DNA of 45,482 nt, from the NCBI GenBank assembly GCA_934726435.1, contig CAKVDR010000001.1, positions 1 through 45,482 of the forward strand, given 5' to 3'. The DNA is from an uncultured Eubacteriales bacterium. Its GTDB lineage: Bacteria > Bacillota > Clostridia > Oscillospirales > Acutalibacteraceae. A program made the position numbers and the translations under genes. Below are positions 38,207 through 45,482 of the stretch, one piece after another. The notes under the pieces were generated by a model that was not told the origin of the DNA, did no database searches, and saw nothing but the letters and a program-made list of their open reading frames with translations. Positions within the stretch are counted from its first letter, which is position 1. Every line of letters starts with the position of its first letter.

Positions 38207-38301
38207 TACAAAATTGAATGATAGTTATAGATATGTTAAAATAAGAATACAATTATTATAATGAAATAAATTTAAAGATGAGAGAAGGATGGCATTTATT
38301 T

Positions 38302-39144
38302 ATGAAAAGTAATAAGATTCTTAAACTTGGCTCATTGACTTTATCGTCAATGATTTTTTCTGTTTCTGCATTGCACCCCGTTTATGCAAGCCGCGTCCAC
38401 ACTAAAAAAGCGATATTTTCCGATTCAACCCCTTTGGCTAAACGCCTGGAAGAAGAAAGACAGGCAATGAAACCCCATAAAGAAAAAGAAACAGCTATTA
38501 ATTTGGATGATATATTCAACTTGGATGTAAATTCAAAAAAAGCGTTGAGGGTAGATCTGATCGGTCCTGTGCCGATTAATAAGTTTGAAATTTGCGAAAA
38601 GATTGAAAATCTTGAAGAGGAAATTTATGGTAAAAATATATTTACATTAAGAGAGTCGAAATGTTATAGAGGCGTTTTTCACATTGAGTTATGTACGGGC
38701 GTTTCTTTTAAAGGTTTTAAGGAGTGTTCTAGGTTGAATTCCTTTAAAATTTGTGTTCGAAAATTTTATGATAAACAGTTTATGCCACTTAACGTGTTAG
38801 TTTATTATTATGTTATAGATCTTTTACAAAAAATTGATGATAAAATTAATGCTCCGAAATTTTACCGTGATAAATTATGGCGGGAATGTCAAATGGATAA
38901 CATTATAGACAGGCTTCAATCAAGGAGGGAAAGTCTGAGTGATTTAGTTCGCAGGAGTAAAAATACTTTGACTTTGCAATTTAATTGTGGTGTTGAAAGC
39001 GTGATTGAATTTCTCTTTAAGATAAGGGATTTTTGCGAGCGCTGGGCGTTTGAAAATGATGCACTGTTGGAGGAAAGTTGTTTAAAAGATATAGACACTG
39101 CCATAGCAATACTTTGGTATATTGATCAAAGTATAATAGCGTAA
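38302..39144 (+). CDS. Secreted protein of unknown function (first gene of the secreted-protein island)
   Basis: I place the start at MKSNKILKLGSLTLSSMIFSVSALHPVYA-S. It has an RBS and a signal peptide, and I recognise no domain. Confidence 0.6.
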   Translation: MKSNKILKLGSLTLSSMIFSVSALHPVYASRVHTKKAIFSDSTPLAKRLEEERQAMKPHKEKETAINLDDIFNLDVNSKKALRVDLIGPVPINKFEICEKIENLEEEIYGKNIFTLRESKCYRGVFHIELCTGVSFKGFKECSRLNSFKICVRKFYDKQFMPLNVLVYYYVIDLLQKIDDKINAPKFYRDKLWRECQMDNIIDRLQSRRESLSDLVRRSKNTLTLQFNCGVESVIEFLFKIRDFCERWAFENDALLEESCLKDIDTAIAILWYIDQSIIA

Positions 39145-39269
39145 AATTTTATATATAAAAATTTGTATTATGGTTTTATAATTGGAATATATTTATTAAA
39201 TAGTTATATTGACAAAATTAAGAAATTATGATAAAATGAAACGATATATTTGTAAAAGGGGGTGTAAAA

Positions 39270-39827
39270 GTGAAAATAAGTTTGCTAAAAAAAATTGTAG
39301 CTTTAGGTCTTAGCCTCTGCACGGTTATGAGTTTAGCCACGAGTGCGTTTGCATCGGGGATCAGTGGTTTTGTGCGTGCAAAAACTCCTGGTATTACATA
39401 CTTTTTTGATGTTTATAGGCTTACCGGGTATTATGTTTATGGATATGACATAGCGGGTTATAGTGTAGTTGGATTAAAAACTGAAAATGTATATGTAAAG
39501 GATGTTTCGCGTGAATCTTTGAAAAAAACTGAAATAACAGGAGAAGACGATATTTCTGTTAGGATTTATAATCCTTGTTGCAGCATAAAGATTATGTTTG
39601 CTTTTGCGGCACTTTATGTTCTTGGCTACAGCAAGACTAAAATAATTAATTTTATTTTACGACTGGCAGAAAATGAAGCTGTGGAAGGAAATATTCCTTT
39701 GTATAGTCTTTATCTTGGTGTTAAGGATGAATTTAATAAAATTTTAGCACGTGGAAAAGACTGCAAACCATATAGATTATCTGTTGCAAATAAAATTTGT
39801 GAAGAAATTTTGGTAGAGGATGAATAA
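39270..39827 (+). CDS. Secreted protein of unknown function
   Basis: GTG start with an AGGGGGTG RBS. The signal peptide is LKKIVALGLSLCTVMSLATSAFA-S. Confidence 0.6.
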   Translation: MKISLLKKIVALGLSLCTVMSLATSAFASGISGFVRAKTPGITYFFDVYRLTGYYVYGYDIAGYSVVGLKTENVYVKDVSRESLKKTEITGEDDISVRIYNPCCSIKIMFAFAALYVLGYSKTKIINFILRLAENEAVEGNIPLYSLYLGVKDEFNKILARGKDCKPYRLSVANKICEEILVEDE

Positions 39828-39853
39828 TTATATTTTAAAAAAGGAGTACACTC

Positions 39854-40792
39854 GTGAAAAAATTTAAATTAAGTGCGGTGATATTGTCAATCCTGAGCCT
39901 GGGAGTGGCGTGTAACGGCTTTGCATGTGCTTCGAAAGAGCCGGAAGAAATGTCAACATTTTGCGAATATGAACCTATTGCTGATCTTGAAAATGCATGT
40001 AATTCTGAAAGTGATAATAATTTAAGACTTTTACTAAACAAACTTAAAAATGTTACATCAAAAAAATTACCTAGGACGGTTATAGATTTTATTTTTATAT
40101 GTGATAGCGAAAAAAATTCAGGCCCATTTTTAGATTTTTTAAGTTCAGAAGTTGTGAGACTTATTAAAGAGGGAAAAATAACAGAATCTCAATATATGTT
40201 TGAAGTTTACAATATAGCTGTTGAAAAAGTGATTAAAAAAGTGCCTTATAGTGGTTTTGGAGTAATAGAAGTACCCAAATTTTCTAAAGATAAACCTAAA
40301 GACGAACTCAAAGATAAATCTATAGATAAACCTAAAGACAAACTTAAAGATAAATCTATAGATAAACCTAAAGACGAACTTAAAGATAAATCTATAGATA
40401 AACTTAAAGATGAACTTAAGGACAAACCTGAAGATAAATCTATAGATAAACTTAAGGATGAATCTAAGAACGAACTTAAAGATAAACCTAAAGATGAACT
40501 TAAGGATGAATCTGAAGATGAACCTATTGTCGATCTTGAAAATGCATGTGAATCTGAAAATGATAAAACTTTAAAATTTTTAATTAATGAACTTAAAAGC
40601 GTTGTATCGAGTGACTTCCCTAGTAATGTTAATGATTTTGTTGCCTTAAGTAGCGATGAAGAACGCTCAGGTGAATTTATAAGTTATTTATATTCGGAGT
40701 TTACTAGACTTATGGATGAAGAAAAAATAGAAGAAGCTGGATATATGTATCAAGTTTATGATATAGCTCTTTATAATGCATTGTATAAATAA
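39854..40792 (+). CDS. Secreted protein: two copies of a roughly 90-aa domain separated by a K/D/E-rich tandem-repeat linker
   Basis: GTG start with an AAGGAG RBS. The signal peptide is ILSLGVACNGFACA-S. Domain 1 begins EPIADLENACNSESDNNLRLLLNKLKN and domain 2 begins EPIVDLENACESENDKTLKFLINELKS. Confidence 0.7.
   Translation: MKKFKLSAVILSILSLGVACNGFACASKEPEEMSTFCEYEPIADLENACNSESDNNLRLLLNKLKNVTSKKLPRTVIDFIFICDSEKNSGPFLDFLSSEVVRLIKEGKITESQYMFEVYNIAVEKVIKKVPYSGFGVIEVPKFSKDKPKDELKDKSIDKPKDKLKDKSIDKPKDELKDKSIDKLKDELKDKPEDKSIDKLKDESKNELKDKPKDELKDESEDEPIVDLENACESENDKTLKFLINELKSVVSSDFPSNVNDFVALSSDEERSGEFISYLYSEFTRLMDEEKIEEAGYMYQVYDIALYNALYK
40288..40520 (+). repeat. In-frame imperfect 24-36-bp tandem repeats encoding KDK(SID)KPKDELKD units
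   Basis: Units of aaagataaatctatagataaacctaaagacgaactt are repeated about 6-7 times inside the 39854-40792 CDS. Confidence 0.85.
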
Positions 40793-40826
40793 AATTTTAA
40801 TTTTATAATTATTAAAGTGAGGAACA

Positions 40827-41159
40827 ATGAGTAAATTAAAATCAATAATAGTGCCGATTTTGAGTTTAGGGGTGGCTTGCAGCGGGTTTGCATGCGCTTC
40901 AAAAAGATGTGTGCCTAAGTTGCCCGGAAGAGATATCATCGTAGAGAGTGGAATGCAAAATTATCAGAATTTTGATCAGGTTCCTGTTAACACACCGAGA
41001 TTTGTAGCACCTGAATCGTTTGAAGATATCGTGGATTTTGAAGATTTTTACTCTATGCTTGTAGAGGAAGGTAAAATTTCTTTGAAAGAAAAAGAATTTT
41101 TGATAGAATATGATAAGATCCTAGCTGATATACTCAACGGACTCAGAATCATTCATTAG
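40827..41159 (+). CDS. Small secreted protein, same subfamily as the 39854 gene
   Basis: The signal peptide is ILSLGVACSGFACA-S. The C-terminal LVEEGKISLKEKEFLIEYDKIL resembles the RLIKEGKITESQYMFEVYNIA and RLMDEEKIEEAGYMYQVYDIA segments of the neighbouring gene. Confidence 0.65.
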   Translation: MSKLKSIIVPILSLGVACSGFACASKRCVPKLPGRDIIVESGMQNYQNFDQVPVNTPRFVAPESFEDIVDFEDFYSMLVEEGKISLKEKEFLIEYDKILADILNGLRIIH

Positions 41160-44590: not shown

Positions 44591-44706
44591 GTTGGCATTT
44601 TCCTATCTTCCCAGGCCGCTTCCAGCCAAGTATTTTCGGCATCATCCAGCTTAACTACCGTGTTCGAGATGGGAACGGGTGTACCCTGGATATCATCAAC
44701 ACCAAC
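44591..44706 (-). rRNA. rrf: 5S ribosomal RNA, stand-alone (no adjacent 23S or 16S)
   Basis: The reverse complement reads GTTGGTGTTGATGATATCCAGGGTACACCCGTTCCCATCTCGAACACGGTAGTTAAGCTGGATGATGCCGAAAATACTTGGCTGGAAGCGGCCTGGGAAGATAGGAAAATGCCAAC. It contains the universal CACCCGTTCCCAT..CGAACACGG.AGTTAAGC core. The termini pair as helix I (GTTGGT with GCCAAC). Confidence 0.85.
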
Positions 44707-44712
44707 ATCTAT

Positions 44713-44741
44713 ACTATACCACGCCTGTTTTATATTGTCAA
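44713..44741 (-). promoter_or_regulatory. Consensus sigma-A promoter driving the 5S rRNA gene
   Basis: On the minus strand: TTGACA (44741-44736), a 17-nt spacer ending in TGG, then TATAGT (44718-44713). The -10 element lies 6 nt before the mature 5S 5' end. Confidence 0.75.
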
Positions 44742-44923
44742 GTGTTTTTTTCAAATTTTTTTAAAAAATTTTTTATTTCGAATTTTACTAGGCGGAATGG
44801 GAGATAGCAGTCATTCACTTTTTGAGTTTATATTAAAACCTGAGAAAAAATCCCCCGCGTAAAATTGGAATCTCAAATTCATGGTTTCACCAAATCGATA
44901 AATTTTAATGGTATTTTTTCTAT

Positions 44924-45185
44924 TATAGACAATTTTAGACTATTTTTATGAGGTTTAAAATAAATCATATTAGTTTACTAAATTTTGTTTAATGATTTTA
45001 GACTTTTGGGTTGAAACTCTGAAATATTGTTTTTTTGTGTACAAAACTCAAAATTTGTGATATTACTCTTAATGTAAGATTAAATATGGAGGATCATATG
45101 AAAATAATTAAAAAAATTTTTGTTTTAAGCACTTCTGCAATTTTGGGATTAGGTTTTTGCGCTGGAACTGCTTTTGCTAGCACCA
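44924..45185 (+). repeat. Repeat module, 5' part, copy 2
   Basis: It aligns with 43967-44228, an offset of 957 nt. Confidence 0.85.
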
Positions 45186-45397
45186 CACCTAAATGTGGTT
45201 ATGAAATTGATATAGCCAGGCCGATCCCTGTTAGGCCAAGGCTGAATAGAGGGCTTCGTAGATCGCCTGGAGCTCATTTCATGAGGGATGGGAAGATTCG
45301 TATTTATGGCTCGGTATACGACGCTGCTTCATTAACTTATGGTGATCATGAAGAAATTGAAGGACTTGATATATATTCATATCTTCATAAGAGCTAG
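45098..45397 (+). CDS. Small secreted protein (99 aa) within repeat module 2
   Basis: GGAGGA RBS. The signal peptide is MKIIKKIFVLSTSAILGLGFCAGTAFA-S. The mature part (TTPKCGYEIDIARPIPVRPRLNRGLRR...) is unrelated to that of copy 1. Confidence 0.65.
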   Translation: MKIIKKIFVLSTSAILGLGFCAGTAFASTTPKCGYEIDIARPIPVRPRLNRGLRRSPGAHFMRDGKIRIYGSVYDAASLTYGDHEEIEGLDIYSYLHKS

Positions 45398-45407
45398 AAT
45401 AATCAAT

Positions 45408-45482
45408 AAAAAATGCTCCGAGAAAATCGGAGCAATAAATTTATGAATTCACACGGTAATGAGATCGTGTGGATAACTTTTT
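45408..45482. repeat. Repeat module, 3' part, copy 2 (identical to 44485-44559, which leads into the 5S 3' end)
   Basis: The 75 nt are identical to copy 1. They include the GCTCCGAGAAAATCGGAGC and CACACG...CGTGTG hairpins. The repeat is truncated by the window end. Confidence 0.85.

Follow-up and report, generated by a model that had tools for sequence, protein, structure and literature searches.

A genus-specific array of small proteins with predicted Sec-type signal peptides downstream of serS in uncultured gut Clostridia

Background

Very little is known about the repertoire of proteins that uncultured gut Clostridia export toward their host, phages and neighbouring bacteria. We report on a run of 11 consecutive short open reading frames (ORFs), P1 to P11, located directly downstream of serS in an uncultured Eubacteriales bacterium (Bacillota; Clostridia; Oscillospirales; Acutalibacteraceae). 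The DNA analysed, hereafter the window, is 45,482 nucleotides (nt) long and corresponds to positions 1 to 45,482 (forward strand) of contig CAKVDR010000001.1 in the NCBI GenBank assembly GCA_934726435.1. Comparison with other assemblies of the genus, together with searches at the level of sequence families and predicted folds, indicates that the array is a genus-specific, chromosomally fixed locus of Sec-type, predicted helical proteins without enzymatic or anchoring domains. We also discuss how such an array might diversify, and what its products might do outside the cell.

Gene content of the array

The array extends from 38.2 kb to the end of the window and consists of 11 plus-strand ORFs encoding 99 to 312 amino acids (aa), which start downstream of the terminator-like hairpin that follows serS (Table 1). 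A previous reading of the window (the sequence-only reading) had described at least 11 consecutive short genes here, all on the plus strand and each with a signal peptide, in a block more AT-rich than the core genes and without enzymes, transporters or regulators. Our data agree with the number and size of the genes, and no enzyme, transporter or regulator was found among them. The plus-strand orientation applies to the 11 protein ORFs, while a 5S rRNA gene within the block is on the minus strand; likewise, nine of the 11 ORFs have a signal peptide by a simple rule (see below), the exceptions being P5, which carries a frameshift, and P9, which has a TGA inside its leader. With respect to base composition, the GC content is 30.8% in the array versus 38.2% in the remaining window, and at third codon positions (GC3) the values are 0.16-0.33 in the array versus 0.35-0.39 elsewhere in the window.

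Table 1. Positions of serS, the array genes and associated features in the window
Feature	Position	Strand	Family; length	Description
serS	36883-38151	+		Conserved left border; 96-97% aa identity to L015, L016 and L095; Pfam match on the L095 orthologue
Terminator-like hairpin 3' of serS	38168-38196			From terminator scan
P1	38302-39144	+	F1; 280 aa	Promoter-like site 38214-38242; signal peptide ...PVYA-S
P2	39270-39827	+	F2; 185 aa	Promoter-like TTGACA-17-TAAAAT 39209-39237; conserved NPCCSIK motif
P3	39854-40792	+	F3; 312 aa	Class-A signal peptide
P4	40827-41159	+	weakly F3-like; 110 aa	Class-A signal peptide; hhalign F3 vs P4: 35% probability, E = 4e-4
P5	41275-41666	+	F4, disrupted gene	Class-A leader 41275-41364; body 41331-41666 in another frame
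P6	41694-42197	+	F4	Class-A signal peptide
P7	42194-42829	+	F4	Class-A signal peptide
P8	42835-43383	+	F4	Class-A signal peptide
P9	43423-43917	+	F5	Class-A leader interrupted by TGA; terminator-like hairpin 43921-43955 downstream
P10	44141-44485	+	F6; 114 aa	Class B; conserved upstream region 43957-44140
Orphan 5S rRNA unit	44490-44741	-		Promoter-like TTGACA-17-TATAGT 44741-44713; 5S gene 44706-44590 (83 bits); hairpin 44510-44490
P11	45098-45397	+	99 aa	Class B; conserved upstream region 44914-45097
Second terminator-plus-5S unit, start	45406-45482			100% repeat of 44482-44558; window ends within

Signal peptides

Signal peptides were called with a crude rule (n-, h- and c-regions plus an AxA site), which is not a predictor of SignalP grade; by this rule, 9 of the 11 array genes carry a signal peptide, but only 4 of 35 ORFs (non-overlapping set) in the remaining window do so (p = 3e-5, Fisher test). 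The nine intact leaders have a Lys-rich n-region and an uncharged hydrophobic core followed by VYA-S, AFA-S, ACA-S or VFA-S, i.e. the cleavage motifs quoted in the sequence-only reading are present. Beyond the leader the proteins are hydrophilic and lack additional hydrophobic spans; the grand average of hydropathicity (GRAVY) of the mature parts is between -0.2 and -0.8 except for P2 (0.03). Judged by the rule, the features of Sec and signal peptidase I (SPase-I) substrates (n-region, 10-15-residue h-region, AxA site and hydrophilic mature part) are therefore in place.

Two leader classes are found. Seven genes, P3 to P9 (families F3, F4 and F5), carry the class-A leader MKKxKLNAVIASILSLGVVCSGSAFA-S, and P10 and P11 the class-B leader MKIVKKIFVLSTSAILGLSFCTGTAFA-S; P1 and P2 each have their own individual leader. 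A comparison of six class-A proteins (P5 excluded) gave 67% identity for the leaders and on average 19% for the mature parts. The leader DNA (75 nt) shows 75-99% identity between families as well as between genomes, irrespective of the mature family; the nearest neighbour of a given leader often comes from another family or another genome. Alignment columns of F4 vary little in the leader (entropy 0.53 bits) and far more in the linker (2.0) and the domain (1.84).

Mature domains and predicted structures

As judged from the sequences, the array includes at least six unrelated mature-domain families (F1 to F6), and hhalign comparisons between F1, F2, F3, F4, F5 and F6 revealed no relation. Local hhalign links were restricted to P5b with F4 and, weakly, P4 with F3 and F6a with F6b; on these grounds we dropped the idea that all members derive from a single diverged superfamily. 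P1 has a conserved N-terminal peptide, HTKKxxFSD, followed by a variable linker and a C-terminal helical bundle, and is present in a single copy per species with 42-48% identity between species. In P3, a tandem repeat rich in K, D and E (positions 40283-40523; period 12/24/36/72 nt) connects two copies of a ~90-aa helical domain. The F4 paralogues P6, P7 and P8 combine a basic linker with a C-terminal helical-bundle domain of ~110 aa. The mature parts of F4, F5 and F6 are basic (isoelectric point, pI, 8.7-9.5), and those of F3 are acidic (pI 4.6-4.7).

The AlphaFold model of P8, based on 13 sequences, has a mean predicted local distance difference test (pLDDT) score of 74. Residues 71-180 have block means of 82-98, mostly above 90, and are modelled as a five-helix bundle, with one helix long and the other four shorter; disorder is predicted for residues 27-58. 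For P1 (12 sequences) the mean pLDDT is 52, and only residues 160-280 (pLDDT 70-90), also a predicted helical bundle, are usable. Foldseek searches with both models gave best E values of 0.12 and 0.67 against PDB, and 0.24 against BFVD for P8, with no informative neighbour. The matches (talin R4, pectin-methylesterase inhibitor, copper-storage proteins and designed bundles) are generic helical bundles with E ≥ 0.12, and we do not regard them as homologues.

In the last helices of F4, conservation follows a periodicity of 100-105 degrees (p = 0.005 and 0.013), with L, F, W or I at most of the conserved positions. No conserved polar cluster hinting at an active site was seen in F4. Helix-periodic conservation of hydrophobic residues suggests that the fold is kept and that the surface is free to change. 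In addition, some members of F3, F4 and F6 have a motif, K/E-L-R-R-x or L-x-R-Q-N-A, at a distance of 43-101 residues from the N-terminus (residue 70 in P7, 66 in P8, 52 in P10 and 53 in P11). It occurs one to three times in the linkers, in tandem in P0022 and P0028, and may be a propeptide-processing or docking site.

Disrupted genes

In P5 the complete leader runs into a stop codon and the body, an F4 domain according to hhalign (93.7% probability), is out of frame. The likely intact counterpart in assembly L097 (7183-7716) encodes 177 aa with an intact class-A leader, and its C-terminal end is similar by eye. In P9 there is an in-frame TGA at 43483-43485 where the orthologues have TGC (Cys); the orthologues P0029 and P0031 read ...GVITCSGSAFAS at the position of the interrupted leader. 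Since TGA terminates P6, it is a genuine stop in this genome. The P9 nonsense codon is present in every strain contig that spans the site, and the P5 frameshift is spanned by no strain contig. Internal starts in P9 and P5 could yield leaderless cytoplasmic products of 129 and 111 aa, respectively.

Searches for relatives

Ten array proteins were searched against the sequence families of Pfam, NCBIfam, PHROG and PADLOC, and no match above threshold was obtained, in keeping with the sequence-only reading, which had recognised no family. For the Phr N-terminal model (TIGR04429) the best score was 10.6 bits (E = 0.65) compared with a cut-off of 25, and at 99-312 aa the array proteins are longer than Phr-type precursors (about 40-60 aa); the phytoplasma SVM family (PF12113) gave no Pfam match at E ≤ 1 among the 10 proteins. 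Weak matches to the EntB repeat region, BrxA, Phr_nterm and DHC_N2 were rejected as low-complexity or leader likeness far below the cut-offs. A PDB sequence search with the F1 profile gave no match at E ≤ 1.

Relatives are rare also in very large collections. A word-indexed search of 5.8 billion proteins returned 12 clusters with P1 as query, 21 with the F4 profile and two with P2, none of them with a Pfam domain or a name, and an exhaustive HMMER search with the F1 profile detected eight proteins among 1.84 billion representatives. The JGI metagenomes gave three loci only, one of which is apparently the L015 contig again. No relatives were found in viral contigs, and this together with the lack of PHROG matches and of mobility genes speaks against a phage or mobile origin. 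Sequence profiles and the two structure models were also used to look for distant relationships to conserved sporulation or cell-wall proteins, and none emerged.

The locus in other genomes

Based on SerS, the closest species representatives are the metagenome-assembled genomes (MAGs) UMGS1703 (97%) and UMGS1750 (96%), and the next relatives are at ≤73%. A literature search found no paper mentioning these MAG names and nothing relevant on similar loci in gut Clostridia. The habitat of the genus is the human gut, with detection mainly in non-industrialised samples, e.g. Hadza.

Four other assemblies of the genus carry the locus at the same place, between serS and dut-mreBCD, and in the same order. 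In L015 (UMGS1703), serS is followed by eight array genes, two minus-strand 5S genes and dut-mreBCD, while the Hadza contig L095 has 10 array genes and then dut-mreBCD-PBP2-mgsA-hisS. L097 has 19 array genes, with the P1 orthologue split by a frameshift, and L016 has four, after which the contig ends. Species thus differ widely in the number of array genes, with 4 as the lowest count and at least 19 as the highest, and strains differ by one gene. An 11-kb contig, L099 (1-11104), consists of 15 class-A genes in a row, whose leader variant reads ...VCSSSVCAS, and positions 4117-7152 of L097 comprise a six-copy family beginning SGDEDGSKPPKPPKSYE.

For comparison we examined 45 serS loci from other Oscillospirales in which 5 kb or more of downstream sequence is available. 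These have 0-3 small signal-peptide genes each versus 8-10 in the array loci, and tblastn revealed no array homologues in them. The array loci carry no transposase, integrase, tRNA or phage gene, and the precomputed Pfam annotation is blank for every array gene. The sequence-only reading had referred to the block as an island; in the mobile sense this term is not supported, because mobility genes are lacking and all species examined have the locus at one and the same chromosomal position. The serS-dut adjacency, which was compared to decide between an insertion and the ancestral state, is not conserved outside the genus. Presence/absence and copy-number variation at the serS flank are evident, and the restriction to one genus, the near absence of relatives, the variable gene number and the fast divergence (see below) give descriptive support to the earlier suggestion of a dedicated secretome rather than housekeeping genes.

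Rates of divergence and recombination

Rates were estimated by comparing the window with L015, L095 or L016. The flanking core proteins are 92-99% identical, with a nonsynonymous divergence (dN) of 0.003-0.04 and a synonymous divergence (dS) of 0.26-0.69 (about 0.4), whereas the array proteins are 25-52% identical between species. For the single-copy genes P1 and P2 the dN values are 0.41-0.42 and 0.46-0.52, respectively, which is close to the core dS, and overall the nonsynonymous divergence of the array is 20-100 times that of the flanking genes. The array genes are the fastest-evolving genes in an otherwise near-identical origin-proximal region. The DNA identity to L015 is 91% across rsmG, serS and the P1 leader and collapses ~130 nt into P1.

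Within the species, the polymorphism amounts to three single nucleotide polymorphisms plus one recombination tract. In the strain-level metagenome contig L012 (1-260 compared with window positions 41588-41847, and 42178-43984) the end of P5 runs into a hybrid P6/P7 leader, behind which the body of P7 follows. Recombination within the leader has therefore removed P6 from L012 or, conversely, added it to the window strain. Other changes include the P3 repeat with its internal domain duplication, family expansions in L097, and the pseudogenes (P5 and P9 here; P1 in L097).

Transcription units, 5S rRNA genes and upstream regions

Transcription units were inferred from promoter and terminator scans plus intergenic gaps. 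These suggest three kinds of unit: P1 alone, a P2-P9 operon, and P10 and P11 singly. The operon probably runs from the near-consensus sigma-70-type promoter-like site upstream of P2 to the hairpin downstream of P9. Between 39144 and 43921 there is no terminator-like site except one 5-bp stem inside P8 (42892-42906), and the gaps range from a 4-bp overlap to 115 nt.

The orphan 5S rRNA unit, whose promoter-like site is likewise near-consensus, is head-on to replication and convergent with P10, and the hairpin is common to both. Past the window end, contig L001 runs on into sequence identical to 44482-44656. The order of a class-B gene plus a convergent 5S gene occurs exactly twice, at the array end, in L015, L095 and L097.

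The regions (~190 nt) upstream of P10 and P11 are better conserved than the coding sequence (five species, nine copies). They include the conserved blocks TAGACAATTTTAGAC, the palindrome TTAGTnnACTAA, GTTGAAACTCTGAAATATT and the extended -10-like TGTGATATT. The TAGAC direct repeat of this region has no other mismatch-free occurrence in the window, and the only exact match to the palindrome block is upstream of P11, the P10 counterpart having three mismatches. An RNA element was considered; the RNAalifold energy (-11.3 kcal/mol) and covariation term (-0.84) were unconvincing. With support for a structured RNA this weak, the region is more likely a promoter/operator than an RNA element.

Genomic setting

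The sequence-only reading had placed the block next to the origin of replication, and this is borne out by the neighbouring genes and by the GC skew. The oriC region is at ~30.2-30.7 kb, with dnaA (28851-30167) and dnaN on the minus strand and rnpA and yidC on the plus strand, and the GC skew flips sign at ~27-31 kb. Toward the array, the plus-strand gene order is yidC, mnmE, an unknown gene of 201 aa, mnmG, rsmG and serS. The array is ~8-15 kb from oriC and its genes are co-oriented with replication.

The 201-aa ORF between mnmE and mnmG (33610-34215, plus strand) has a signal peptide and no Pfam match. It is 67-68% identical between species (dN ~0.17-0.2) versus 92-99% for its neighbours, and represents a second fast-evolving exported protein, outside the array. 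The window also has a second low-GC stretch (13001-16000; 27.9-32%) with small ORFs at 13859-14248 and 14261-14689. Here, a minus-strand ORF of 286 aa (14907-15767) with a leader-like N-terminus and no Pfam match adjoins a peptidase-M23 protein (15901-16917, minus strand).

Discussion

According to the sequences and the models, the products are small, soluble and non-enzymatic, each with a Sec/SPase-I-type signal peptide and, behind it, a charged linker predicted to be disordered and a compact bundle of alpha-helices. The array diversifies by tandem duplication and by unequal recombination through the shared signal-peptide DNA, as seen for P6. Internal repeat expansion (P3) alters members, and frameshift or nonsense mutations (P5, P9) inactivate them. 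Amino-acid replacement runs at an approximately neutral rate, with only the hydrophobic helix core being conserved. A conserved fold with a changing surface fits proteins that have external, variable partners. Taking the sequences and the models together, we put the probability at roughly 0.45 that the products are released and act by binding such partners rather than by catalysis, i.e. that they are effector-like. Possible partners would be host mucosal or immune molecules, phages or competing bacteria.

Several observations weigh against this interpretation. The dN/dS of P1 and P2 themselves is 0.31-0.60, which is below 1, and on the alignments at hand the rate contrast with the flanking genes fits weak constraint as well as positive selection. 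Moreover, the array dS (0.87-1.35) is higher than the core dS, and old alleles, introgression/recombination or alignment noise may inflate the contrast. Within the species, contigs from different human samples are 99.6-100% identical, and the only strain-level diversification visible is a single deletion. In this species P5 and P9 are broken, as is P1 (by a frameshift) in L097; individual members are therefore dispensable. The modelled helical bundles are generic folds, and the Foldseek comparisons were uninformative. Finally, the excess of 'LRR', which occurs in 16 of 78 non-redundant array proteins versus 3.3 +/- 1.8 in shuffles, counts in favour of the interpretation as a lead only, since the motif was picked after inspection of the sequences and the orthologues are not independent.

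A further proposal, which we consider unlikely, is that of a secretome cassette system. Here a single signal-peptide module prone to recombination, perhaps combined with a pro-region site of the LRR type, would export and process duplicated and swapped helical domains, and these would be host- or phage-directed binders under diversifying selection. If true, the locus would be a commensal counterpart of the conotoxin- or SVM-type effector superfamilies.

The effector-like interpretation also has to be weighed against the view that the products are lineage-specific envelope accessory proteins, kept non-covalently in the wall or septal space, and that they evolve fast only through weak constraint and not in an arms race. 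The dN/dS values of 0.3-0.6, not above 1, agree with this view, as do the almost complete lack of within-species variation, the near-consensus vegetative promoter-like sites and the position of the locus next to mreBCD-PBP2 in relatives; the basic mature parts of F4, F5 and F6 would favour anionic wall polymers. F3 is acidic, however, and the Pfam scan of the array proteins revealed no SLH, CWB, LysM, SH3 or LPXTG anchor module. In addition, the number of genes varies between 4 and at least 19 with members being pseudogenised, and the locus is absent from the other Oscillospirales examined despite the same envelope. A role as envelope accessories is on balance improbable, and if it applied the locus would still document gene gain and loss driven by shared signal-peptide sequence.

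Genes for interbacterial competition typically accumulate in variable tandem arrays; the locus described here is a tandem, variable array of paralogues with rapid turnover, and its products are small, exported and without a housekeeping role. They could then be bacteriocin-like factors exported by Sec, or 'orphan' immunity proteins, likewise exported, directed at toxins acting outside the membrane. In five assemblies, however, no toxin, peptidase-C39/ABC exporter, type VII secretion system (T7SS) or LXG gene was found in or beside the locus, and the PADLOC and Pfam searches were empty. There is also no double-glycine leader and no small membrane immunity protein; instead, a signal peptide and a hydrophilic mature part are found throughout. 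We therefore regard this alternative as distinctly unlikely.

The recurrence of the L-x-R-Q-N-A / K-L-R-R motif raises the question whether the array encodes pre-pro-proteins that give rise to diffusible signalling peptides, with the motif as a Phr-type or Kex2-like processing site. It is present in the linkers of three otherwise unrelated families, and there is a sub-threshold N-terminal likeness to Phr_nterm. Yet only ~20% of the members have the motif, and in the P8 model it is placed at the start of a long, confidently predicted helix. The C-terminal domains are predicted to be well folded with conserved cores, which is unexpected for mere carriers, and the locus has no RRNPP or Rap-type receptor, oligopeptide permease or protease. 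A signalling function is for these reasons very unlikely.

The conserved leader Cys could in principle serve as an anchor in phase-variable surface lipoproteins of the Mycoplasma Vsp/Vlp type. This Cys is located ~7 residues before the AxA site in classes A and B and in P2; P3 and P4 (L-G-V-A-C) loosely fit a relaxed lipobox, P3 has a repetitive region, and the P5 frameshift is directly after the signal peptide. However, P3 and P4 (G-V-A-C) are the only members that fit relaxed patterns; in most members the lipobox [LVI][ASTVI][GAS]C is absent (G-I-V, G-V-V, V-I-T, L-S-F or L-S-L precede the Cys), i.e. the residue before the Cys is mostly V, I, T, F or L, whereas lipoprotein signal peptidase needs G, A or S. 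The P1 leader has no Cys, a canonical AxA site is present downstream in all members, the repeat scan revealed no invertible promoter element or flanking inverted repeats, and the P9 defect is fixed in every strain contig covering it. Surface variation in the Mycoplasma sense, which the sequence-only reading had listed among the options, is thus unlikely because of the missing anchor motif and the mostly failing lipobox, and the lipoprotein explanation as a whole appears highly improbable.

That the array is a decaying remnant, with AT-rich DNA and ORFs no longer under selection, would agree with the low GC, the two broken genes and the near-neutral dN, but is scarcely plausible given that ORFs, gene order, signal peptides and ribosome-binding sites are kept in at least five species despite a synonymous divergence of 0.4-1.3, that dN/dS is below 1, that hydrophobic cores are conserved with helical periodicity, that AlphaFold gave a confident fold from only 13 sequences, and that the upstream control regions are strongly conserved.

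The locus constitutes a compact candidate set, with nine intact genes here, up to 19 or more in sister species and no homologues outside the genus. If the effector-like interpretation is correct and host or phage targets are bound, the array would open up a new source of small helical scaffolds for binding and would be a rare case of effector-like evolution in a commensal.

Comparison with known systems

Staphylococcus aureus has, in the ssl/lpl clusters of its genomic island nuSa-alpha and in SCIN, CHIPS and Efb, tandem arrays of about 10 genes for small non-enzymatic secreted proteins that bind immune molecules of the host; two of them, SCIN and Efb-C, fold as small helical bundles, and the number of genes in the arrays differs between strains. 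The likeness to the locus described here is in the tandem paralogous arrays of small secreted proteins and the variable gene number. By contrast, the SSLs have an OB/beta-grasp fold and Pfam domains, none of which was matched here, and the S. aureus arrays are on strain-variable genomic islands or phage-borne. We know of no signal-peptide module common to unrelated folds in the S. aureus arrays.

The Mycoplasma Vsp, Vlp and Vsa proteins have a conserved 5' region or leader and divergent, repetitive mature parts, are encoded in tandem arrays and are switched on and off by frameshifts. They have canonical lipoboxes and dedicated switching, whereas in the present array the lipobox mostly fails and no inversion system was seen in the repeat scan. 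Among Gram-positive bacteria, the YSIRK-G/S and KxYKxGKxW leaders are conserved and common to unrelated exported proteins, which points to a shared export or localisation route; the leaders described here match none of the NCBIfam or Pfam models for YSIRK-G/S and KxYKxGKxW, and their cargo is small and without an LPXTG anchor. Outside bacteria, the precursors of conotoxins and amphibian skin peptides have a signal that is far more conserved than the hypervariable mature part and a pro-region with basic processing sites, and these families have expanded by duplication under diversifying selection. They are eukaryotic disulfide-rich mini-proteins and the domains here are helical with 90-250 aa, so the comparison is an analogy only.

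The phytoplasma SVM effectors (SAP11, SAP54/phyllogen; PF12113) differ from the array proteins in that they are multi-copy in mobile units or phage-derived mosaics, compared with one fixed locus without mobility genes here, and in that the host is a plant or insect and not the human gut; nor was PF12113 matched. SAP11 and SAP54 both carry the SVM motif, which is presumed to be a signal peptide (PMC8026896). The likeness to the array is in small, Sec-exported and largely helical proteins of a Firmicutes-derived lineage, with a conserved signal-peptide motif on diverse mature parts and with genes that are clustered, AT-rich and subject to rapid turnover. The families of the array are undescribed, yet this kind of locus is known, and elsewhere a conserved leader combined with hypervariable cargo marks effector and toxin families.

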